Below are positions 22,969 to 36,821 of a stretch of DNA of 64,000 nucleotides, in pieces. The notes under the pieces were generated by a model, which was not told the DNA's origin, did no database searches, and was given only the letters and a program-made list of their open reading frames with translations. The position numbers and the translations under genes were made by a program. Each line of letters starts with the position of its first letter. The first letter of the stretch is position 1. The DNA is from Candidatus Dormiibacterota bacterium (GTDB lineage Bacteria; Chloroflexota; Dormibacteria; CF-121): assembly GCA_036390825.1 (NCBI GenBank), contig DASWBA010000116.1, positions 37,442-101,441 on the forward strand, read 5' to 3'.

Positions 22969-23169
22969 GTGAAGATGGGGGTAGGGGGAGTCTCGAAGAA
23001 GACCAGCGTCCGTCTGGAGGATCTGGTCGCAGCCATCGACGAGCACATCCGTCTCACCGACCAGCGCATTGAGGACGAGCTTGCCCGGGCCAGCCGGCTC
23101 CGCCGAGCGCGGCGCCAGCTGGAGCTGCGACTGTGGCGGACGTCCCCGCTCTTTTCCAAGACTTCATGA
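22969..23169 (+). CDS. small coiled-coil ORF, possibly leaderless
   Basis: GTG 22969 lies 7 nt after the -10 hexamer. 66 aa, helical (LEDLVAAIDEHIRLTDQRIEDELARASRLRRARRQLELR). Overlaps the start of the HNH gene by 37 nt. Coding status is uncertain. Confidence 0.3.
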   Translation: MKMGVGGVSKKTSVRLEDLVAAIDEHIRLTDQRIEDELARASRLRRARRQLELRLWRTSPLFSKTS

Positions 23170-24422
23170 GTGCCGTCGCCGCCGCGGAACCGCGCGACCT
23201 GGCTCCGCTGCCTGTCTCCCTCCTCGTCGACGAATTCCGGGAGGCGGTTGTCGGGGACCTGCCCGAAGACGACCTCACGGGGCGGCTCGCGCGGCGCCAG
23301 TACGTGATCGATCGCCTTAAGCTCGATTTCTCTAGAGACGCCGCCCGCCTGGCCGCCCAGTTTGATACGGAGAACGCCGGAGACCTCTTAAACGCGCCCA
23401 CCGCGGGCGAATGGATCCGACACAACTGCAAGACGACGAGCAGCGTCGCCTACGACTCCATCAACGTTGGCAAGCAACTGCACCGGCTCTCAAAATGCGC
23501 CGATGCGGTCGCCGCCGGCACGATCGGCTTCGCGCACCTGTCTGTCATCGCGCGCACAGCTAAGGCCCTTGACGGGCTGAGGACTGAGCCAGCCTTTTCC
23601 GAAGACGAACTACTTGAGCGCGCCAAAGAGTCATCCGCGGGCCGCCTCTGGCACTACTGCATGCGGCTGCGCCATGCCCTTGATCCGGAGGGCGTGGCGC
23701 AGGAGCAGCGCATCGCCGTCGAGGAGCGCCGGCTCCAGTTCAGCGTCTGGGACGATGGGTCGGTTCTTATCAGCGGCCGGCTCGACCCGGTCGGCGGGGC
23801 GGCGCTGCGGACGGCCCTCGAGCCACTTGCACAGCCCATGGGCGAGGGCGACGATCGCTGCCTCGAGCATCGCCAGGGCGATGCGATCGTCGAGCTGTCG
23901 CTTCATTCCCTCGATGCCGGGCTGGTGCCGCAGCACGCGAGCCAGCGCCCACACCTCCAGGTCACCACGACGCTCGAAACGCTGCAGGGATTGCCTGGAT
24001 CGCCCGCGGCTGATCTGGAGTTCTCGACGCCGATCTCGTCGATCACGGTGCAGCGACTCGCGTGTGATGGGAACATCGCTCGGGTCGTGTTCGGTCCTGA
24101 CTCTGTCGTGGTCGATGTTGGCCGGGCGGCGCGAGTTGTGTCGGGCGCAACCCGCCGCGCGTTGAACGCTCGCGACCAGCACTGCCGCTGGCCCGGCTGC
24201 GAGCGGACGGCCTCTTGGAGTGCGGCTCATCACGTGGTTCACTGGACGCAGGGCGGCAAGACCGATCTATCGAACCTGCTTCTGCTCTGTCATCGGCATC
24301 ATTGGATGGTGCACGAAGGTGGATGGAAACTGGCGCGGTCAGATGACGGCCGGGTGCTGGCAATTCCACCGACATACGATTACTGGCGCACAGCCCAACG
24401 GCAACGATCTTCCCGAGAATGA
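23133..24422 (+). CDS. DUF222-domain HNH endonuclease (13E12-repeat-family type)
   Basis: 429 aa. The N-terminal DUF222-like region is followed by the HNH motif ARDQHCRWPGCERTASWSAAHHVVHWTQGGKTDLSNLLLLCHRHHWMVHEGGW. Confidence 0.85.
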   Translation: MADVPALFQDFMSAVAAAEPRDLAPLPVSLLVDEFREAVVGDLPEDDLTGRLARRQYVIDRLKLDFSRDAARLAAQFDTENAGDLLNAPTAGEWIRHNCKTTSSVAYDSINVGKQLHRLSKCADAVAAGTIGFAHLSVIARTAKALDGLRTEPAFSEDELLERAKESSAGRLWHYCMRLRHALDPEGVAQEQRIAVEERRLQFSVWDDGSVLISGRLDPVGGAALRTALEPLAQPMGEGDDRCLEHRQGDAIVELSLHSLDAGLVPQHASQRPHLQVTTTLETLQGLPGSPAADLEFSTPISSITVQRLACDGNIARVVFGPDSVVVDVGRAARVVSGATRRALNARDQHCRWPGCERTASWSAAHHVVHWTQGGKTDLSNLLLLCHRHHWMVHEGGWKLARSDDGRVLAIPPTYDYWRTAQRQRSSRE

Positions 24423-27781: not shown

Positions 27782-27900
27782 GGATGTAAAAGGTGATATA
27801 TCGAATGGCTGTATTTAGTATAGCTCTACGCTCAATCGCATCACGCAACGCAAAAATGCACCGAAGCGGCGCAATACGAACGCCGGTACACTGTCGACAC

Positions 27901-28884
27901 ATGTCGGACCCTTCCACCCCAGTTCGGCTTGCACCGACCGCGGATGGCGGGCCGGTGGGGTCGGTCATGGTGATCGGGGGCGCAGAGGACAAACTCGGCG
28001 AGCGTGTCATCCTGTCTCGCTTCGTCGAGCTCGCCGGAGGCGACCAGGCGCAGATTGCCGTGATCAGCACCGCCTCCTCGCTGGGTGAGGCGGCGACCGA
28101 CCTCTACCGGCACATCTTCTCGAGGCTGGGGGTCTCGAAGGTGACCGGGCTTCGGCCCGAGACGCGCGAAGAGGCGAATGATCCGGCGACCGTCGACGCG
28201 CTCAAAGGCGTTACCGGGATCTTTATGACGGGCGGCAACCAGCTTCGCCTCTCGTCGGTAATCGGTGGCACCAAGCTCGGCAGTGCAATCCTCGAGGCGC
28301 ACGGCCGGGGGATCGTCGTGGCCGGAACCTCCGCGGGTGCCAGCGCCGTCGCCACCCACATGATGGCCTTCGGCAGCTCCGGCGCCACGCCAAAGAATCG
28401 CATGGCGCACGTTTCCGTCGGCCTCGGGTTGCTCGTCAACGTCGTCGTCGATCAGCACTTCGAGCAGCGGACGCGCCTCGGCCGCCTGCTCGCGGTGGTC
28501 GCGCAATCGCCCTCGCTGATCGGCCTCGGGCTCGACGAGGACACCGCGGCTGTCATCGACGCCCATGACATCCTCGAGGTCATCGGACGCGGCGCCGTGA
28601 CCATCGTCGACGGCTCCGATGTCATCACCGACGCTTTCCAGACCAGCGGCCACAAGCCGATCATGGTGTCCAACGCGCGGCTCCATTCGCTGCCCTCGGG
28701 CTACCAATTCGATCTGCGCGCGCGGCGCGTGCTCCCACGTGACAACGCTCGCAACGAGCGCATCGCCCAGCTGGCGCAGGGCCGCGTCGCCAAGATGGTG
28801 CGTCAAAGCGCCGCCGAGGGCGCCAACGATCGGGCGTTGGAGCGACGCCGCCGGCGCCAAGAGGAACGAAAGGCCTCAGAGTGA
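27901..28884 (+). CDS. cphB: cyanophycinase (peptidase S51)
   Basis: VMVIGGAEDK, IAVISTAS, GIFMTGGNQLRL, the nucleophile motif VVAGTSAGASA, and VVDQHFEQRTRLGRL. ATG 27901 was chosen because the track start at 27793 lies in an AT-rich promoter region. Confidence 0.9.
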   Translation: MSDPSTPVRLAPTADGGPVGSVMVIGGAEDKLGERVILSRFVELAGGDQAQIAVISTASSLGEAATDLYRHIFSRLGVSKVTGLRPETREEANDPATVDALKGVTGIFMTGGNQLRLSSVIGGTKLGSAILEAHGRGIVVAGTSAGASAVATHMMAFGSSGATPKNRMAHVSVGLGLLVNVVVDQHFEQRTRLGRLLAVVAQSPSLIGLGLDEDTAAVIDAHDILEVIGRGAVTIVDGSDVITDAFQTSGHKPIMVSNARLHSLPSGYQFDLRARRVLPRDNARNERIAQLAQGRVAKMVRQSAAEGANDRALERRRRRQEERKASE

Positions 28885-31646
28885 GCGACGCGCGCACGGA
28901 CACGCGAGTCGAGCGCGACGAGGACGCCAAGCACGAGCCTGTCGCCAACAAGCCGCCGGCCAAGCCCGAGCTGAAGATTCTCGAAAGCCAGGTGCTGCGT
29001 GGGCCCAACTTCTGGTCCTATGAGCCGACCATCCGCCTGCTCGTCGATCTTGGCTCGCTCGAGCACTGGCCATCGAACACGCTGCCGGCCTTCACCGACG
29101 CGCTGATCGACCTACTGCCCGGGTTGCACGATCACGGGTGCTCGCTCCACCGCCCCGGCGGATTCATCGAGCGGCTCCGCGAGGGCACCTGGATGGGTCA
29201 CGTGGCCGAGCACGTCGCCCTCGAACTCCAGCGGGAGACGGGCGCTACCACGACCCGCGGCAAGACGCGCCGCGCCGGAACCCCGGGCACCTACAACGTG
29301 GTGTACGGCTACAACGAGGAGCAGGTCGGGCTGGCTGCCGGCAAGCTCGCCGTCCGCCTGATCAACCACCTCGTCCAGGCCAATCCCACTTTCGACTTCG
29401 TCGGCGAGCTGGAGAGCCTGGTCCTGCTGGCCGACCGCGCCGCCTTTGGACCCTCGACGCAGGCCATCCTCGACGAAGCCGCGCGTCGCGACATTCCCTA
29501 CATCCGGCTCAACGAGCAGTCCTTCGTCCAGCTCGGCCAGGGCAAATATCAGCAGCGGATCCGCGCCACCATGACCTCACGCACCTCGGCGCTCGGCGTC
29601 GACATCGCCGGCGACAAGAAGCTGACGACGTCGTTGCTGGCCTCCGCCGGCCTGCCGGTGCCGAGGAGCGAGATGGTGCGCTCCGCCGACGAGGCGGTCG
29701 CCGCGGCCGTGCGCATCGGGTATCCGGTCGTCACCAAGCCACTGGACGGCAACCATGGGCGTGGCGTTGGACTCGACCTGCGCAACGAGGAGGATGTGCA
29801 GCGCGGTTTCGAACGCGCCCTTCGCCAGACACGCAGCGGGGTGGTCGTGGTAGAGAGCTTCATCCACGGCAACGACTACCGGGTGCTCGTTGTCGACGGT
29901 CACATGGTGGCAGTGGCGGAGCGCGTTCCCGCACACGTGGTCGGCGACGGCCAGCACACGGTCCTCGAACTGGTCGAGATCACCAACAAGGATCCACGGC
30001 GTGGCATCGGTCACGAAAAGGTCCTGACCCGCATCAAGGTCGACGAGGCGGCCGAAGAGCTCGTTACGAAACAGGGATTCGCCCTCGACCAGGTGCCGCC
30101 CAAGGATGCCGTGGTCAAGCTGGCGGCGACAGCCAACATGTCCACCGGCGGCATCTCGATCGATCGCACCTTCGAGGCGGACCACGACAACGTCGAGATC
30201 GCGGAGGAGGCCGCCCGTGTGGTCGGCCTGGACGTGGCGGGTATCGACTTCCTCACGCCGGACATCTCCCAGCCGGTGCGTGAAACGGGTGGCGCCATCG
30301 TCGAAGTCAATGCGGCGCCCGGATTCCGCATGCACACCAACCCGACCGAGGGCGAGCCGCAGTACGTCGCCAAGGCGGTGATCGACATGCTCTTCCCCCA
30401 GGGCACACCGGCGCGCATCCCCATCATTGCGGTCACCGGCTCCAACGGCAAGACGACGACCGCCCGCATGATCGCCCACATCGTGAAGGGGCTCGGGCAT
30501 AAGGTCGGGATGACGACCACCGATGGCATCTACATCGATGGCCGCCTGGTCAAGCAGTCGGACGCGAGCGGCCCGCGATCGGCGCGCATGGTGCTCCAGA
30601 ATCCCCGGGTCGACTTCGCCGTCTTCGAGGTGGCGCGCGGCGGCATCCTTCGCGAGGGCCTCGGCTACAGCGCCAACGACGTCGCCGTCGTGCTCAACGT
30701 GACCGGCGATCACCTCGGCTTGAAAGAGGTCCATTCGTTGCGCCAGCTGGCCGCGATCAAGCGGGTCGTGGTCGAGGCGGTTCCCCGCAGCGGCACCGCC
30801 GTCCTCAACGCGGACGACGAGCTGGTGGCCGAGATGCGCAGCCACTGCAGCGGCTCGGTCATCTTTTTTTCCATGCGCGACGACAATCCGCTCGTCGACC
30901 GCTGGGTACGGCGCGGCCGGAAGGCATTTGTCATCGAAACGCAGCCCGGAGGCGGCGAGATGATGGTGCTCCGCGAGGGGCGGCGCAGCACGCAGATCGC
31001 CTGGGTCCATCTGGTGCCGGCGACCTTCGAGGGTCGGGCCCGCGCCAACGTTCAGAACGCGCTGGCGGCGGCGGCCGCGGCCCACGCCGCCGGGGCCCAC
31101 CTCCACGACATCCGTCAGGGTTTGCGTAGCTTCCATCCGTCTTTCCACGAAGCCCCCGGCCGCCTCAACATGTTTGAGCTTCACGGGGTCAAGGTGATCG
31201 TCGATTACGCGCACAACCCCGCCGGCCTGCAAATGGCGGGTGACTTCGTCGAGCGGCTCACGGCTCCCGGCGTCAATGCACCAGGGCCAGAGCCTGGGCG
31301 CCGGATCGCCGTCATCGCCACGCCCGGCGATCGACGCGACGAGGACATGCGTGAGCTGGGTCGGGTCGCCGCCCGCATCTTCGACATCCTGATCGTTCGC
31401 GAGGACGCCAACCCGCGCGGCCGTCAGCGGGGCGACATCGCGCGCCACGTGATGGAGGGCGTCAAGGCGACCCCGGACAGCCGCGTGCAATCGGCCGAAA
31501 TCGTCATCGACGAGCGCCCCGCCATCGACGCGGCGCTGAGCCGGGCCCGGCCGGGCGACGTCGTCCTCCTCTGCGTCGACAAACCCGCCGATACCTGGCG
31601 GGACCTCGAGGCGCGCCGCGCCCTCCCGGTTTCGCCGGGGAACTAA
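28881..31646 (+). CDS. cphA: cyanophycin synthetase (N, ATP-grasp G and Mur-ligase M domains)
   Basis: 921 aa. N-domain: LKILESQVLRGPNFWSYEP. ATP-grasp: DKKLTTSLLASAGLPVP..VVTKPLDGNHGRGV..NDYRVLVV..EVNAAPGFRMH. M-domain: IAVTGSNGKTTT..DFAVFEVARGGILREG..VIVDYAHNPAG. GTGA overlap with the cphB stop. Confidence 0.95.
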   Translation: MSDARTDTRVERDEDAKHEPVANKPPAKPELKILESQVLRGPNFWSYEPTIRLLVDLGSLEHWPSNTLPAFTDALIDLLPGLHDHGCSLHRPGGFIERLREGTWMGHVAEHVALELQRETGATTTRGKTRRAGTPGTYNVVYGYNEEQVGLAAGKLAVRLINHLVQANPTFDFVGELESLVLLADRAAFGPSTQAILDEAARRDIPYIRLNEQSFVQLGQGKYQQRIRATMTSRTSALGVDIAGDKKLTTSLLASAGLPVPRSEMVRSADEAVAAAVRIGYPVVTKPLDGNHGRGVGLDLRNEEDVQRGFERALRQTRSGVVVVESFIHGNDYRVLVVDGHMVAVAERVPAHVVGDGQHTVLELVEITNKDPRRGIGHEKVLTRIKVDEAAEELVTKQGFALDQVPPKDAVVKLAATANMSTGGISIDRTFEADHDNVEIAEEAARVVGLDVAGIDFLTPDISQPVRETGGAIVEVNAAPGFRMHTNPTEGEPQYVAKAVIDMLFPQGTPARIPIIAVTGSNGKTTTARMIAHIVKGLGHKVGMTTTDGIYIDGRLVKQSDASGPRSARMVLQNPRVDFAVFEVARGGILREGLGYSANDVAVVLNVTGDHLGLKEVHSLRQLAAIKRVVVEAVPRSGTAVLNADDELVAEMRSHCSGSVIFFSMRDDNPLVDRWVRRGRKAFVIETQPGGGEMMVLREGRRSTQIAWVHLVPATFEGRARANVQNALAAAAAAHAAGAHLHDIRQGLRSFHPSFHEAPGRLNMFELHGVKVIVDYAHNPAGLQMAGDFVERLTAPGVNAPGPEPGRRIAVIATPGDRRDEDMRELGRVAARIFDILIVREDANPRGRQRGDIARHVMEGVKATPDSRVQSAEIVIDERPAIDAALSRARPGDVVLLCVDKPADTWRDLEARRALPVSPGN

Positions 31647-33325
31647 CGCCGAGCTCGCTGGACCAGTTCGCGTAGACGCGTCGGTCCCACGGCCGCCCCA
31701 CCGCGCGATCGCAACAGCTCGAAGATCTCGGAACGCTGAGCCAGGGCCGTGATGGCCACCACCTCCATGGGCGCCGACTCCTCGAGCATCCACGTCAGCG
31801 CCGCGACCTCGTTGGGAAAAACCGGCGCCGCCTCCTTGCCACCGTCTTCGAGGCCGGCCTGCAGCCGTTCGACGAGATCCTTCGGATCACGCCCGCGCAG
31901 ATAGCGGTGCAGTTCCGCGATGGCGGGCCGGTCGGCGCCCCGCGCGGCCGTGTAGGCGAGCCGGTGCAGGATGGCGTTGGTTCGATCTCCAGCGGTGCCG
32001 AACGCGAGGAAGATCCGGGCTGACCCGGATCGAAGACCCTGGCAGATCTCGACCAGGCCGCGCATGCCGTCCTCGTTGTGGGCGTAATCGATGACGACCA
32101 CCCGGCCGTCGAGCTCGAAGAGGTTGGCCCGGCCGGGGTTGCTGTCCGGGTCGAGCACGAACGACCGCAACCCTTGGGCGACCGCCTCTTCGGAGACGCC
32201 CGCTCCCAGGGCAGCGGCCGCCGCCGCCATCGCGTTGCGGAGGTAGGGGCTGGAGATGCCGGCCAGCGCCACCGGGATGTCCTCGAGGGGGATCAGATGG
32301 TGAACCTGCCGGCGTGACGACATCACCACCAGCATGCGATCGAGAACCGAGATGGCGCGCCCGCCCTCGGCCAGTGTGGTGCGGATCGCCGGATGGTCGG
32401 CATCGAGCGAGAACAGCCATGGACGTCCAGTCGCAAGACGCCGCATCGCCAGGACGCGAGGATCGTCGGCGTTGAGCACATCCCAACCGTCCGGGCGAGT
32501 GATCCGGGTGATGGTGCCCTTGACCTCCGCCAGCTGGTCGATGGTCCGGATCCCGTACTGGTCGAGGTGGTCCTCGGTCACGTTGGTCACCACCGCGACA
32601 TCGTTGTGATCGGTGCCGATGCCGCGCAGCAGGATGCCGCCGCGCGCGGTCTCGAGCACGGCGAAGTCGATCCCCGGCTGCGCCAGCGCCTTGGCCGCGC
32701 CGCTGAAACCTGAATAATCGCCCTCCTCGACCAGCTGCTGATCGCGATAGACCCCGTCGGTGGTGGTGTAGGCGACAGTGTGGCCGGCCGCCCGTGCCAG
32801 GTGCGCGATCAAGCGCACGGTCGTCGTCTTTCCGTTGGTGCCGGTCACCGCGATCACCGGGATCGTCGGGCTCAGCGTGGTCGGGGCAGCCCCAGGTGGC
32901 ACGGTCTCCAGGCGTTGCGCCGCCGCCGCGATTGCGCGATCCATCGACCGTCGCCCGTCGAGCCCGACGGTCAACAAGGGCGCCAGCTCGCGCGCGAAGG
33001 CCTCAGCGGCTCCCCGCCGGCGCCAGGGAAAGGCGATCACGATCTGCTCGGGTGCAGGGCCGGGTCTTCCGCGGACGGCGAGATGCGTGCCGCTGGCGTC
33101 GGCCAGGGTGCGCGTCAGGTGGACCGCGAAACGGGCAACGTAACGGCGCCGCTGGTCGCTCCCCGGCTGGCCGCCGGTCGCCGAGGGGGTAAAGGCGGTC
33201 CGCCGGGTCAGCTGCTCGACCCTGGCCTGGGGCAGTGCCAGCCACGGGGACACGTCGAGCGTGAGTTTGATCGCGGGGCGCGTGAAGTAGAGGTTGGGGC
33301 CGTCGAGCACGCGCAGCTCGACCAT
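31643..33325 (-). CDS. cyanophycin-synthetase-like protein with N-domain + Mur-ligase (M) domain only (no ATP-grasp domain)
   Basis: 560 aa. MVELRVLDGPNLYFTRPAIKLTLDV parallels the CphA N-terminus. At about residue 165 it passes directly to IPVIAVTGTNGKTTTVRLIAHL, then DFAVLETARGGILLRG, VVTNVTEDHLD, VVIDYAHNEDG and FGTAGDR. Its stop overlaps the cphA stop (CTAA). Confidence 0.85.
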   Translation of the reverse strand: MVELRVLDGPNLYFTRPAIKLTLDVSPWLALPQARVEQLTRRTAFTPSATGGQPGSDQRRRYVARFAVHLTRTLADASGTHLAVRGRPGPAPEQIVIAFPWRRRGAAEAFARELAPLLTVGLDGRRSMDRAIAAAAQRLETVPPGAAPTTLSPTIPVIAVTGTNGKTTTVRLIAHLARAAGHTVAYTTTDGVYRDQQLVEEGDYSGFSGAAKALAQPGIDFAVLETARGGILLRGIGTDHNDVAVVTNVTEDHLDQYGIRTIDQLAEVKGTITRITRPDGWDVLNADDPRVLAMRRLATGRPWLFSLDADHPAIRTTLAEGGRAISVLDRMLVVMSSRRQVHHLIPLEDIPVALAGISSPYLRNAMAAAAAALGAGVSEEAVAQGLRSFVLDPDSNPGRANLFELDGRVVVIDYAHNEDGMRGLVEICQGLRSGSARIFLAFGTAGDRTNAILHRLAYTAARGADRPAIAELHRYLRGRDPKDLVERLQAGLEDGGKEAAPVFPNEVAALTWMLEESAPMEVVAITALAQRSEIFELLRSRGGAAVGPTRLRELVQRARR

Positions 33326-33330
33326 GGCGG

Positions 33331-33720
33331 CTAGGGCTGGATCAGGTTCTTTCCAGCGTCCTCGAGGTGCTCGTGCGCTTCGGCCACGGTGTCGTGGAGG
33401 CGCTCGAGCAGGAGACGGTAGTCCGTCATCAACTGCCGGGTCCGCTCGCGCACCTCCCGGTATTCGGTGATCGGTGGCCGGGCCGTTTCCCCGAAGGGCT
33501 GGAGCATGGTGCCGAGCTCACGAGCTTTTCCCGCCATCACCCGCAGGATCATCGCCCGGAGTTCCGGAGAGACGCCCTCCATGATGTCCGCGTAGCCCTG
33601 CAACAAGGACAGGTGTCCACGAACCGTGAGCGCCATCGCCGCGGCCTCATCGTTGGCCCCCGCCTTACCACGCGCGGGAAACCGGATGATCTTTGGGGCC
33701 CGCTGCGGAAGCGCGCTCAT
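33331..33720 (-). CDS. small helical protein with DHp/H-box-like segment
   Basis: 129 aa. LTVRGHLSLLQGYADIMEG resembles a HisKA H-box helix, but no ATPase domain follows. ATGA overlap with the upstream wHTH gene, and it ends 5 nt before the N+M ligase gene. Confidence 0.5.
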   Translation of the reverse strand: MSALPQRAPKIIRFPARGKAGANDEAAAMALTVRGHLSLLQGYADIMEGVSPELRAMILRVMAGKARELGTMLQPFGETARPPITEYREVRERTRQLMTDYRLLLERLHDTVAEAHEHLEDAGKNLIQP

Positions 33721-34256
33721 ATGGTGAAGACCAGCCCGTAGCCGCGGCGAGGCTCACTGACCAGATGGGCGGGAACGCCGCTGGTCGCAAGGTGGCGTCG
33801 CAGGCGGACGATGTAGGTACGAAGTTGCTCTGGTGCCAGGTCGGGCGCGGACCAGGCAAGGCTGACGAGCTGCGAAGCCGAGTAGAACTGCCCCGGCCGC
33901 CTTGCCAGGAAGGCGAGCAACTCCGCCTCGCGACGGGTGAGCGTGATGCGTTTTCCGGCATAGCTGAGGACCCGGCGTCGCACATCGAGGTCGAGACCGG
34001 CGAGGTCCCACAGCCGGCGCTCCCAGAACTCGAGCCGCGACCGCAACCGGCGCAGGTGGGTCTCCATGACCCGCTCGTCCACATCGCCAACCCCGTTGCG
34101 AAGCCGGCTCAGTGTTCGCTCCGAGAATGAGACCAGCTCACGATAGATGCTGACCCATTGGCGAGCGTCTTCGAGGTCGCGCGTCTCGGGGACTTCCCCG
34201 GGGAGCAGATAGAGCTCGACGACAGATTGGCGTGAAACGCTCAGGCGGGCCATCAA
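33717..34256 (-). CDS. OmpR/PhoB-type winged-helix DNA-binding protein without receiver domain
   Basis: The C-terminal part ITLTRREAELLAFLARRPGQFYSASQLVSLAWS...LRTYIVRLRRHLA...VSEPRRGYGLVF matches the Trans_reg_C pattern. The N-terminal ~85 aa are helical with no receiver Asp pocket. Confidence 0.7.
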   Translation of the reverse strand: MMARLSVSRQSVVELYLLPGEVPETRDLEDARQWVSIYRELVSFSERTLSRLRNGVGDVDERVMETHLRRLRSRLEFWERRLWDLAGLDLDVRRRVLSYAGKRITLTRREAELLAFLARRPGQFYSASQLVSLAWSAPDLAPEQLRTYIVRLRRHLATSGVPAHLVSEPRRGYGLVFTI

Positions 34257-34308: not shown

Positions 34309-34962
34309 TTGTTGCATCAGGGGCGACCGTCACCCGAGCCGGATGAGGTTGAGCTACCGCTGAAGGCCCGGCCGTTTACCGATGCGGCCTTTGACGTGGT
34401 CGCCCTGGCATCGTCAGCGGGTGGCATTGCCGCGCTGAGTGAGATCCTGGGAAGTCTGCCTGCTGACTTCCCGGCCGCGATCGTCGTCGTGCAGCACCTC
34501 GATCCCCGGCACCGGAGCCTGATGGCCGACATTCTTCGACGGCGGACGCCGCTCGACGTGGTGCAGGCCGCCGAAGGTGATCACATCCGCCCGGGCACGG
34601 CCTACATCGCGCCCCCCGATCGCCACCTGCTGGTTAATCCCGATGGCACCCTCTCCCTCTCCTACTCGGAGCTGGTCCATTTCGTGCGGCCGAGCGCCGA
34701 TCTGCTGTTCGAGTCGGTGGCCGCCAGCTACAAGAAGCGGGCGATTGCGGTGGTGCTCACCGGGACCGGCAGCGACGGCTCGATGGGCATCGGCGCGATC
34801 AAGAAGATGGGCGGGACGGTCGTCGCCCAGGACCAGGCCTCGGCGGAGTTCAGCGGCATGCCAGGGGCGGCGATCCGGTCGGGCAATGCCGATTTCATCC
34901 TTCCGCTCGACGAAATCGCGCCGGCCCTCGTGACACTGGTGATGAAAGAGATGGCCACGTGA
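34309..34962 (+). CDS. CheB-type protein-glutamate methylesterase, catalytic domain only
   Basis: VVALASSAGGIAAL, VVVQHLDP, VLTGTGSDGSMG and SGMPGAAI (Ser-His-Asp triad context). No N-terminal receiver domain. TTG start. Confidence 0.85.
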   Translation: MLHQGRPSPEPDEVELPLKARPFTDAAFDVVALASSAGGIAALSEILGSLPADFPAAIVVVQHLDPRHRSLMADILRRRTPLDVVQAAEGDHIRPGTAYIAPPDRHLLVNPDGTLSLSYSELVHFVRPSADLLFESVAASYKKRAIAVVLTGTGSDGSMGIGAIKKMGGTVVAQDQASAEFSGMPGAAIRSGNADFILPLDEIAPALVTLVMKEMAT

Positions 34963-36821
34963 CCGACGAGCCGGAGGGCCCCGACTTCGAGCGTTTGCTG
35001 CAGTACCTCCGCGAAACGCGCGGCTTCGATTTCAGCGGTTACAAGCGAAATACGCTCTTACGCCGCATCGCAAAGCGGATGACGCACGTCGGGGTCAATG
35101 ATCATGGGGCGTACCTCGACTACCTGCAGGCGAATCCCGACGAATTCGCCGCCTTGTTCAACACCATCCTGATCAACGTCACCAGCTACTTTCGAGATGC
35201 CGAAGCGTGGGACTATCTGCGAGCGGAGATCCTGCCCAAGATCATTGACGCCAAAGCCCCGTACGAACCAATCAGGGTGTGGAGTGCTGGGGTCGCGTCC
35301 GGCGAGGAAGCGTACAGCGTCGCCATGCTTCTCTCCGAGGTGCTCGGCTCGTCCGAATACCGCGAGCGGGCGAAGATTTACGCGACTGACGTCGATGAAG
35401 ACGCGCTGACCCACGCGCGCCAGGGCAGGGCAACCGAGAAGGACCTGGAGGAGGTCGCCGCCAACCTGCGGGAAAAATACTTCGAGCGCGAAGGCGACGA
35501 CCACTATGTCCTTCGGAGCGAGCTACGGCGGTCGATCATTTTCGGGCGCCACGACCTGGTGCAGGACGCGCCGATCTCGCGCATCGATCTGCTGGTCTGC
35601 CGCAACACCCTGATGTATTTCGAGCCGGAGGCGCAGGCAAGGATCCTGGCCCGCCTGCATTACGCCTTGACTGAAAAGGGCTACCTGTTCCTGGGAAAGG
35701 CCGAGATGCTCCTCCGGCGTGACACGCTCTTCGTCCCGGTCGACTTGAAGCAGCGGATCTTCACGAAGATCCCCCGGCCGGGGGCACGGGAACAGCGGGC
35801 CGCGGCCGTCCAGGCGACCACCTTCGACCCTGCCAACCAGTCGCCGCGACATGGCCGTCTTCGTGAGCTCATGGTCGATGCATTGCCGGTCGCCCAAATC
35901 GTGGTTGATCCCGGCGGCATCGTGATCGCCGTCAACGAGCGCGCGCGTTCCGTCTTCGGCCTCGTTCCCGCGGACGTCGGACGGCCGCTGCAGGATCTCG
36001 AAGTCTCGTACCGTCCGATCGAATTGCGCTCGCTGATCGAGCAGGCCTATCGCGACCGGCGCCCGGTGGAGGCCCGCGACGTCGAACGAAGACCAGCGAA
36101 CGGTGAAGCCCAGTATTTCGATCTCAATGTGGTGCAGCTGATCGATAAGGATGGCAGTGTGCTGGGGGCCAGCATTGCGTTTACCGACGTCACGAGCTAC
36201 AACCGCGTCCATCGTGAGTTGGAGCGCTCCAAGCAGGAGCTCGAAACGACGTCCGAGGAGTTGCAGGCTACCAATGAGGAGCTGGAGACGACCAACGAGG
36301 AGCTGCAGTCGACCGTGGAGGAACTGGAGACGACCAACGAGGAGTTGCAGTCGAGCAACGAGGAACTCGAGACCATGAATGAGGAGCTCGAGTCGACGAA
36401 CACCGAGCTGGAGACGATCAACACCGAAATGCAGCAGCGCGGAACGCAGTTGGACCACATCAATGTCTTCATGGAAGACGTCCTGGCCAACGTCAAGACG
36501 GGCGTGGCCGTCCTCGACAAAGACCTCCGCGTTCAGCTCTGGAACCCGCAGTCGGAGGAACTCTGGGGCGTGCGCGCCAGTGAAACGATCGGCCAGCCGC
36601 TGCTGTCCCTCGATATCGGGTTGCCGGTCGGCGAGTTGGTAGCCCCAATCAGTGAGGCGATCAAGAGTGCCAGCGGCTTTCGCGAGGTGACGGTCAACTC
36701 CACCAACCGCCGCGGCCAGCGCTTCCGTTGCCGGGTGCAATGCAGTGCCATGGCGGCCGTCGACGGCGGCCGGGGCGCCATCCTGCTGATGGAAGCGGTC
36801 GAGGCCCAGAAGACACTCTAA
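34959..36821 (+). CDS. CheR-type methyltransferase fused to PAS - coiled coil - PAS
   Basis: FSGYKRNTLLRRI and IRVWSAGVASGEEAYSVAMLL (CheR SAM fold), then a PAS domain, the EEL(Q/E)(S/T)TNEEL heptad array, then a second PAS. GTGA overlap with the cheB-like stop. Confidence 0.9.
   Translation: MTDEPEGPDFERLLQYLRETRGFDFSGYKRNTLLRRIAKRMTHVGVNDHGAYLDYLQANPDEFAALFNTILINVTSYFRDAEAWDYLRAEILPKIIDAKAPYEPIRVWSAGVASGEEAYSVAMLLSEVLGSSEYRERAKIYATDVDEDALTHARQGRATEKDLEEVAANLREKYFEREGDDHYVLRSELRRSIIFGRHDLVQDAPISRIDLLVCRNTLMYFEPEAQARILARLHYALTEKGYLFLGKAEMLLRRDTLFVPVDLKQRIFTKIPRPGAREQRAAAVQATTFDPANQSPRHGRLRELMVDALPVAQIVVDPGGIVIAVNERARSVFGLVPADVGRPLQDLEVSYRPIELRSLIEQAYRDRRPVEARDVERRPANGEAQYFDLNVVQLIDKDGSVLGASIAFTDVTSYNRVHRELERSKQELETTSEELQATNEELETTNEELQSTVEELETTNEELQSSNEELETMNEELESTNTELETINTEMQQRGTQLDHINVFMEDVLANVKTGVAVLDKDLRVQLWNPQSEELWGVRASETIGQPLLSLDIGLPVGELVAPISEAIKSASGFREVTVNSTNRRGQRFRCRVQCSAMAAVDGGRGAILLMEAVEAQKTL
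36234..36431 (+). repeat. about nine imperfect 21-nt tandem units (coding) specifying the heptad coiled coil of the CheR-PAS protein
   Basis: gag gag ctg cag tcg acc aac-type units encode ELETTSEELQATNEELETTNEELQSTVEELETTNEELQSSNEELETMNEELESTNTELETINTEMQ. Confidence 0.7.

Follow-up and report, generated by a model that had tools for sequence, protein, structure and literature searches.

A cyanophycin synthetase-like ligase without an ATP-grasp domain, encoded convergently to cphA1 in a Candidatus Dormiibacterota genome

The synthesis of cyanophycin, a polymer that stores nitrogen, has so far been explained by two enzymes, CphA1, which carries the ATP-grasp domain (G) and the Mur ligase-type domain (M) in one protein, and CphA2, in which the work is done by G only. 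CphA2 consists of an N domain, G as its sole active site and a shortened, inactive M domain, and it polymerises β-Asp-Arg. The gene cphA1 is uncommon, being present in 6% of complete bacterial genomes. The gene described here encodes a CphA-like ligase of 560 amino acids (aa), in which an N domain and an M domain are present and G is absent. It was located in a stretch of 64,000 nucleotides (the window) from Candidatus Dormiibacterota bacterium, assembly GCA_036390825.1, contig DASWBA010000116.1, positions 37,442 to 101,441, where it occupies 31643..33325 on the minus strand, stop codon included. The assignment was based on the open reading frame (ORF), Pfam matches and an AlphaFold2 (AF2) model. 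The ORF starts with ATG and the protein begins with MVELRVLDGPNLYF.

The domain architecture was established by profile searches and structural superposition. Pfam assigned Mur_ligase_M (PF08245) to aa 160–372 with 80.8 bits (cut-off 24) and Mur_ligase_C (PF02875) to aa 398–526 with 42.6 bits (cut-off 28.4), whereas no ATP-grasp family matched the 560-aa protein at E ≤ 0.01 and eight matched the neighbouring CphA1. In BLASTP, M was 37% identical to that of the window CphA1 (aa 155–526 versus 513–898, E 6e-57), and all M motifs quoted in a preliminary description of the window as common to the two proteins were present. Against the CphA model TIGR02068, the ligase scored 363.7 bits over model positions 476–847 only, which is under the cut-off of 850 bits. 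Mur ligase equivalogs reached at most 110 bits at cut-offs of 211–1023, with MurE (NF001126, 110 bits, cut-off 373; TIGR01085, 101 bits, cut-off 257), MurF and FolC all far below, and in a comparison with PDB sequences 220 bits were obtained for SuCphA1 (7LG5) and 68 bits for MurE. The closest homology is thus, as proposed beforehand, to the M domain of CphA and not to MurC-F or FolC (364 versus 110 bits against the profiles, with the same ranking in the PDB).

Three parts were delimited on the minus strand: an N-like domain (aa 1–~145, 32891..33325) by hhalign and an N-only model, in which the GPN loop is kept and the peptidase motif is absent; Mcore (aa 155–~390, 32156..32863) by residue conservation and mapping to TeCphA1 and SuCphA1; and Mlid (aa ~391–530, 31736..32155) by Pfam Mur_ligase_C and residue mapping to TeCphA1. 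The N domain reaches to about aa 145, and with its start at aa 155 the P-loop IPVIAVTGTNGKTTT does follow the N domain directly, at a position slightly before the ~165 given earlier. The AF2 model of the full ligase (predicted local distance difference test, pLDDT, 93.9; predicted template modelling score, pTM, 0.92) was superposed on SuCphA1 (7LGQ/7LG5) with query-normalised template modelling (TM) scores of 0.80–0.81 over ~870 alignment columns, compared with ~0.55 for MurE. Since M makes up only 71% of the query, these values mean that the N part superposes as well, in the same placement on M. The ligase ORF occupies the entire interval and leaves no room for a frameshifted G domain, hence no frameshifted full-length cphA is hidden in an adjacent frame. 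Profile searches, superposition and the negative ATP-grasp search agree, and the proposed architecture is confirmed: a diverged CphA-type N domain is joined directly to a complete CphA-type M domain, with no G. Without the ATP-grasp domain the ligase cannot extend the Asp backbone, and full synthesis of multi-L-arginyl-poly-L-aspartate from Asp, Arg and ATP is not expected from it.

Recognition of the N domain depended on the method. For the following comparisons, 23 members of the ligase family were aligned (alignment A1), with the window ligase as first row and 33–62% identity to the other 22. Pairwise comparison of the ligase N-terminus with the window CphA1 gave 30% identity over 40 aa (E 0.005). 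The first 154 aa had no match in Pfam, PF18921 included, or NCBIfam, even at E ≤ 10, and PF18921 did not match any of the 23 family members; sequence-profile libraries alone would therefore wrongly imply that no N domain is present. Using hhalign, the 23 family N-termini were aligned to 15 CphA1 N domains with a probability of 98.3% (E 2.1e-14, 155 columns). The N-only model (pLDDT 94.2) was searched against the PDB with Foldseek, where the top 15 matches were all CphA1 or CphA2 (probability 0.96–1.0, TM 0.47–0.63) and the matches after these had a probability of 0.13 or lower. The homology to the CphA N domain is real, and the N-terminal likeness that had been pointed out from the weak pairwise similarity was borne out by both searches.

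The GPN loop (L7, G9, P10, N11, P17) is the sole strongly conserved N motif in the family. In SuCphA1, the hydrophobic GPNYW loop (Y14/I17) is reported to dock N onto M at the N–M interface. The Cx19HxxEH site of the primer-generating peptidase, which occurs in 83% of CphA1s and is not strictly defining for them, is lost in the ligase: there is no Cys, Arg65 stands in for the first His and Val68 for the Glu, and only the second His is kept, as H69. Retention of a primer-making peptidase in the ligase N domain was considered and rejected for this reason. The N domain of CphA1 holds the polymer only loosely and (β-Asp-Arg)-Asp is the minimal primer, from which it follows that the substrate of M is a free, diffusible species.

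Conservation of the M-domain active site was assessed by comparing the 23 family members with 15 CphA1s, and all M columns invariant in CphA1 were also invariant in the family. In Mcore, the P-loop G162–T168 (with K166), T189, E225, ARGG 227–230, N248, D252-H253, K269 and N285/D287/D288 are invariant in the family and conserved in the CphA1s; K269 stands where Mur ligases have their carbamylated Lys. The residues noted in Mlid are R399, D413, H416-N417, E418, G446-D447-R448, E471, Y475, R477-G-R479 and E506, of which R399, H416, GDR, RGR and E506 are among the columns invariant in both groups. Ligase K166, T167, T189 and E225 align with the ATP and Mg ligands K499, T500, T522 and E558 of TeCphA1, and R399 and H416 align with TeCphA1 R731 and H748, which touch the ATP phosphates from Mlid. 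The pair D252/H253 corresponds to SuCphA1 D585/H586, where the double mutation D585A/H586A inactivates M. The Mur-type features, namely P-loop, Mg ligands, DH pair and the Arg and His of Mlid, were all invariant, and the active site is intact, as had been supposed. Two motifs show family-specific changes, with an extra Tyr giving YLRGR and AHNE replacing the AHNP of CphA1. The ratio of nonsynonymous to synonymous substitution rates (dN/dS) relative to the 79%-identical orthologue in locus L001 was 0.149 for the whole ligase, 0.20 for N and 0.13 for M, so that both domains are under purifying selection.

More than 120 homologues share a length of 560–570 aa, and an exhaustive search returned many proteins of 520–590 aa that align end to end at 37–63% identity. 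The family was defined by end-to-end alignment over ~520–590 aa, the N-terminus (L/V)ExRxLDGPN and the motifs VAFPW, YLRGR and AHNE, all of which are found in the window ligase. It occurs in Dormibacterota, Actinomycetota and Chloroflexota. Close homologues are annotated to Chloroflexota or Candidatus Dormibacteraeota metagenome-assembled genomes (MAGs), and carriers among species-representative genomes comprise Kribbella, Terrabacter, Nocardioides, other Actinomycetota, Sphaerobacteraceae and Chloroflexia. In databases, relatives are named 'cyanophycin synthetase' or 'Mur ligase family protein', and no NCBIfam equivalog covers the family. In the M-domain tree, the 23 members formed one clade outside the CphA1 clade. 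The local cphA1 therefore did not give rise to the ligase by recent duplication or truncation, and the earlier description of it as a paralogue has to be corrected to membership in a deep monophyletic family. A literature search, including a cyanophycin gene-cluster survey, found no G-less CphA-like ligase (most subscription journals being outside its coverage), which agrees with the earlier remark that no characterised member was known. Some orthologues carry a C-terminal TPR_5 domain, as in L009 (7899..10175, Terrabacter sp. BE26) and protein P0125 (745 aa), with E values of 8e-24 and 2e-22, which suggests that these orthologues have a protein partner.

In the window, the ligase gene is convergent to cphA1 (28881..31646, plus strand), coding for a canonical three-domain cyanophycin synthetase 1 of 921 aa, upstream of which lies the cyanophycinase gene cphB (27793..28884, plus strand). 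The window CphA1 scored 1170 bits against TIGR02068 (cut-off 850) and matched PF18921, eight ATP-grasp models and Mur_ligase_M/C in Pfam; its Cx19HxxEH, P-loop and ED..RGR motifs are all intact, and its real start probably lies 3' of the first GTG. CphB was identified by TIGR02069 (245.8 bits, cut-off 126.6) and Peptidase_S51, and its real start is probably located further downstream, the orthologue in L001 having 310 aa. The ligase gene and cphA1 overlap by 4 nucleotides (nt) at 31643..31646, and their stop codons overlap, with TAA of cphA1 at 31644–31646 on the plus strand and CTA at 31643–31645, which is TAG of the ligase on the minus strand. A scan for promoters and terminators found no terminator-like structure between the convergent genes, and in L001 and L002 cphA1 and the ligase gene likewise overlap by 4 nt without a terminator. 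Owing to this overlap without a terminator, transcription from each side must enter the other gene antisense, and expression of cphA1 and the ligase could be mutually exclusive through antisense read-through.

Genomic coupling was examined in 13 informative loci with usable flanks: the window, L001 (with the near-identical L002), L003, L005, L007–L013, L024 and L083. A full three-domain cphA1 lies convergent to the ligase gene within 0–6 kb in 11 of the 13, usually followed by cphB, and this arrangement spans three phyla, down to 37% ligase identity and with variable spacers. The physical linkage to cphBA with overlapping stop codons, reported beforehand for the window, is thus correct there and recurs as convergence with cphA1 in most of the loci. 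The partner CphA1s are intact in the G motif, Cx19HxxEH, P-loop, E.ARGG, NxxxDH, GDR and ED..RGR; compensation for a defective partner M by the ligase was rejected on that basis. Pairwise distances of ligases and of cphA1 were correlated with r = 0.945 (Mantel p = 0.0002), the ligase evolving ~1.5–2 times faster than cphA1. Ligase and cphA1 are co-inherited as a unit, and functional coupling is not proven by this correlation alone.

Further conserved neighbours were sought in Kribbella, Terrabacter, an Actinomycetota MAG, Sphaerobacteraceae and Chloroflexia, and none was consistent across these loci. The neighbours found were lineage-specific: short-chain dehydrogenases/reductases (SDRs), a major facilitator superfamily transporter, an M20 peptidase, an extracytoplasmic function (ECF) sigma factor with a dye-decolourising peroxidase (DyP) and PCuAC, and a GH2 enzyme. 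An SDR pair is located upstream of the ligase gene in Kribbella, Terrabacter and the L007 MAG. Insertions of 4–5 kb between ligase and cphA1 were seen in L005 (9689..14669), L008 and L011 (Kribbella, Actinomycetales), and that of L005 encodes the ECF sigma factor, the DyP peroxidase and the PCuAC copper chaperone.

The family is not the only group of G-less CphA-like ligases. A large G-less clade with the N-terminus 'RRLTGPN', here called DUF4938-type (PF16292, ~570 aa), is sister to the N+M family under midpoint rooting. Both groups lack G and combine a CphA-N-like region (hhalign 97%) with a CphA-type M domain, and they have the Y-L-R-G-R motif and adjacency to cphA1 in common; unlike in the window family, where it is kept in about half of the members, the acidic residue at the position of CphA1 E841 is mostly kept in the DUF4938-type. 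The two are separate tree clades and were also separated by profile hidden Markov models (HMMs), since DUF4938-type members scored 570–760 against the HMM of their own family and 365–420 against the other, and window-family orthologues 587–703 bits against their own profile and 401–429 bits against the DUF4938-type profile. PF16292 matched neither the window ligase nor any other of the 23 family members. DUF4938-type genes stand beside a full cphA1 in nine loci, co-directional in L033, L061, L068, L070, L078, L080, L082 and L086 and convergent in L075; they are mostly on the same strand directly downstream of cphA1. These loci belong to Gammaproteobacteria, Betaproteobacteria, Myxococcota, Planctomycetota and Acidobacteriota, with Luteimonas, Lysobacterales, Steroidobacteraceae, Rubrivivax, Planctomycetaceae and Plesiocystis as named cases; the metagenomic locus L086 has the order amidohydrolase-cphB-cphA1-short ligase. 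Two short ligase genes occur in tandem in L085 (435.. and 2328..), and protein P0136 (972 aa) is a fusion of two complete Mur_ligase_M + Mur_ligase_C modules; such tandem or fused short ligases hint at multi-step tailoring resembling MurC-F. Five further proteins of ~610–660 aa (P0204, P0232, P0236, P0254 and P0234) have a Pfam Cyanophycin_syn (PF18921) N domain with Mur_ligase_M/C and no ATP-grasp. They nest inside the CphA1 M-domain clade, and G appears to have been lost from these CphA1s separately and more recently.

Judging from sequence conservation, the structural model and the genomic coupling to cphA1, we give about an even chance to the proposal that the ligase is a catalytically active stand-alone M module, acting in trans as an ATP-dependent side-chain ligase on cyanophycin intermediates. 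The acceptor and catalytic parts of the side-chain step are all kept and those of the backbone step are all missing, which makes a side-chain ligase in trans the most economical reading. The acceptor groove would be formed by the CphA-type N domain docked on Mcore, the parts that flank the chain at the M site of CphA1. ATP-Mg would be bound at the P-loop (K166, T167, T189, E225), and a chain ending in an undecorated Asp, (β-Asp-Arg)n-Asp, would sit in the groove between N and Mcore. There, the β-carboxylate of the terminal Asp would be phosphorylated, with D252/H253 predicted to be essential. Mlid (R399, H416) would then close, and an α-amino acid positioned on R477/R479/E506 would attack to form the isopeptide bond; E471, Y475 and E418 would probably contribute too in the window orthologue. 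The released chain would be open to further extension by the adjacent CphA1 through its G domain, such that the ligase, working in trans with CphA1, might add side-chain ligase capacity or change the amino acid that is attached. Arg or another basic residue (Lys, Orn) would be the likeliest added amino acid. Re-decoration of trimmed cyanophycin or poly-Asp, which had been suggested in the preliminary description, is unsupported, as no Arg-stripping enzyme is known or was seen here.

Several observations weigh against this proposal. The M domains of the partner CphA1s are all intact, so a second M activity is unexplained. Two loci, L007 and L013, have no cphA1 within 8 kb, and the mirror-tree correlation is equally expected from plain vertical co-inheritance. 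In the N domain, the SuCphA1 polymer contacts S60, R70 and Y110 are P47, D57 and I95 in the ligase, and the peptidase motif is unconserved. In M, the polymer contact E607 of SuCphA1 is replaced by Arg (R274) in 74% of the family, and CphA1 E841, in the region equivalent to the DNPR specificity motif of MurE, is Glu or Asp in about half of the family (E471 in the window ligase), while R234, E418, Y475, T261 and T276 are conserved specifically in the family. The substituted contacts, the variation at E841 and these conserved residues of the family's own hint at a different acceptor or amino acid, for which they leave room together with the redundancy with the partner M. As the main rival explanation, it is conceivable, though not probable, that the same ligase chemistry is directed at another carboxylate or residue of the cyanophycin system and yields a modified polymer or peptide. 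The Arg α-carboxylate (a second layer), β-Asp-Arg dipeptides or short oligomers, or a non-basic added residue would come into question. Such a role would account for the changes at contact and specificity sites (R274 in place of E607, an E841 position that is no longer conserved, and E418, Y475 and R234 as newly acquired residues), the unconserved N-site contacts and the seeming redundancy of performing one reaction twice, and the tandem (L085) and double-M (P0136) G-less relatives recall the stepwise logic of MurC-F. Against it stand the retention of the entire N/Mcore acceptor module with all M-site invariants and the presence of E471 at the E841 position in the window orthologue. Nor are second-layer residues known to us from natural cyanophycin, for which no exhaustive search was made.

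The remaining explanations were given far less weight. A non-catalytic or regulatory partner of CphA1, which would bind CphA1 or cyanophycin and serve as scaffold, granule-associated factor or regulator of chain length while ligating nothing, would be in keeping with the TPR_5 protein-interaction domain at the C-terminus of some orthologues, with the M domain of CphA2 as a known inactive structural remnant, and with the overlapping convergent layout, which suggests coupled regulation. What makes this quite improbable is that M, unlike that of CphA2, has its full length, shows no variation among 23 diverse members at the P-loop, the Mg ligands, the DH pair, R399, H416 or the Lys aligned with carbamyl-Lys, and has a dN/dS of 0.13. 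Inactive remnants are not normally so conserved, and a purely structural role appears unlikely on these residues. Just as improbable is a Mur-type ligase unrelated to cyanophycin (cell wall, cofactor or poly-γ-glutamate), whose adjacency to cphA1 would stem from ancient duplication. The Pfam thresholds for Mur_ligase_M/C are exceeded, two family loci have no nearby cphA1, and NCBI labels relatives just as 'Mur ligase family protein'; however, CphA M domains are the best matches by a wide margin with MurE, MurF, FolC and the other equivalogs far below their cut-offs, a CphA-specific N domain takes the place that the UDP-binding domain has in MurC-F, and adjacency is kept in three phyla despite variable spacers and is shown independently by the sister family. 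A pseudogene or assembly artefact, in the form of a frameshifted or internally deleted cphA1 copy, has a negligible probability. Independent losses of G do exist among true CphA1s (P0204, P0232, P0236, P0254), but the ORF is intact, its length is the same in over 120 homologues drawn from many samples, and the family is deep, monophyletic, under purifying selection and confidently folded, with an intact cphA1 alongside. A truncated or frameshifted cphA1 copy was rejected on the constant length, the deep clade and a dN/dS of 0.15.

Beyond the single gene, it may tentatively be suggested, at a rather low probability, that the G-less CphA-like ligases of the window family and the DUF4938-type form an unrecognised class of trans-acting cyanophycin-tailoring enzymes that add non-canonical or additional residues. 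If so, many soil bacteria would make chemically distinct, so far undetected cyanophycin variants, for example with another amino acid on the Asp β-carboxylate or with a second layer attached to Arg through its free α-carboxylate.

Upstream of the ligase, on the same strand, lie an ORF of 129 aa without a family (33331..33720, minus strand), 5 nt upstream of the ligase start, and a gene for a winged-helix (Trans_reg_C) protein of 179 aa that has no receiver domain (33717..34256, minus strand). The winged-helix domain was assigned by PF00486 (E 3.8e-16, aa 101–174), and the protein is 74% identical to its counterpart in L001; its N-terminal half and the 129-aa ORF had no match to a Pfam or NCBIfam family. 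The winged-helix gene and the 129-aa ORF overlap by 4 nt, which, together with the 5-nt gap to the ligase gene, suggests a three-gene operon with the winged-helix gene first, and the 129-aa ORF is translationally coupled to both of its neighbours. In L001/L002, the 129-aa ORF has 57% identity and a dN/dS of 0.39. The regulator-like genes upstream of the ligase that had been noted before therefore do include a winged-helix gene, yet they are Dormibacterota-specific and outside the conserved unit: the winged-helix gene and the 129-aa ORF are confined to Dormibacterota loci, and the latter is absent from all others. Divergent from this operon, at 34309..36821 (plus strand), the gene for a CheB methylesterase overlaps with the beginning of that for a CheR-PAS-coiled-coil-PAS protein of 620 aa, which contains EELETTNEELQS heptads in repetition and lacks a kinase domain; this layout is kept in L001. 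On the other side of the locus, a 429-aa ORF at 23133..24422 (plus strand) has a C-terminal HNH nuclease motif, CRWPGC...HHVVHW...LLCHRHH, found by eye, and may encode a mobile-element-type endonuclease.

A conserved, apparently active M-only enzyme that is linked genetically to cphA1 in three or more phyla, with a sister family in several others, suggests an undescribed step in cyanophycin metabolism, for which side-chain ligation in trans, control of composition or a new decoration may be considered. Cultured carriers exist in Kribbella, Terrabacter and Nocardioides. For tailoring materials made of cyanophycin or poly-aspartate, a side-chain ligase that acts on its own would be of practical use.

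Like MurE and the other Mur ligases (MurC-F, Mpl, FolC, pseudomurein pMurE), the ligase has a P-loop domain in the centre and a C-terminal domain and would work by way of an acyl phosphate, and its DxAHN, GDR and RGR/'DNPR-region' motifs align with theirs. It differs from these in having no UDP-MurNAc-binding N-terminal domain, its N fold being of the CphA type. The structure 7TZI was considered as a closer relative and rejected, as it is a pseudomurein ligase. Likeness to CphA1 (SuCphA1 7LG5/7LGQ, TeCphA1 7WAE) comprises the N fold, its docking on Mcore, the complete Mcore and Mlid, 37–40% identity over M and the shared neighbourhood of cphB and cphA1. What sets the ligase apart from CphA1 is the missing ATP-grasp G of ~330 aa, the loss of Cx19HxxEH and of the polymer-contact side chains, and its position in a separate deep clade. 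CphA2 and the ligase are both reduced versions of the CphA1 plan that keep the N domain, and the ligase represents the reduction complementary to CphA2, with G lost and M of full length and, from its conserved residues, apparently active.

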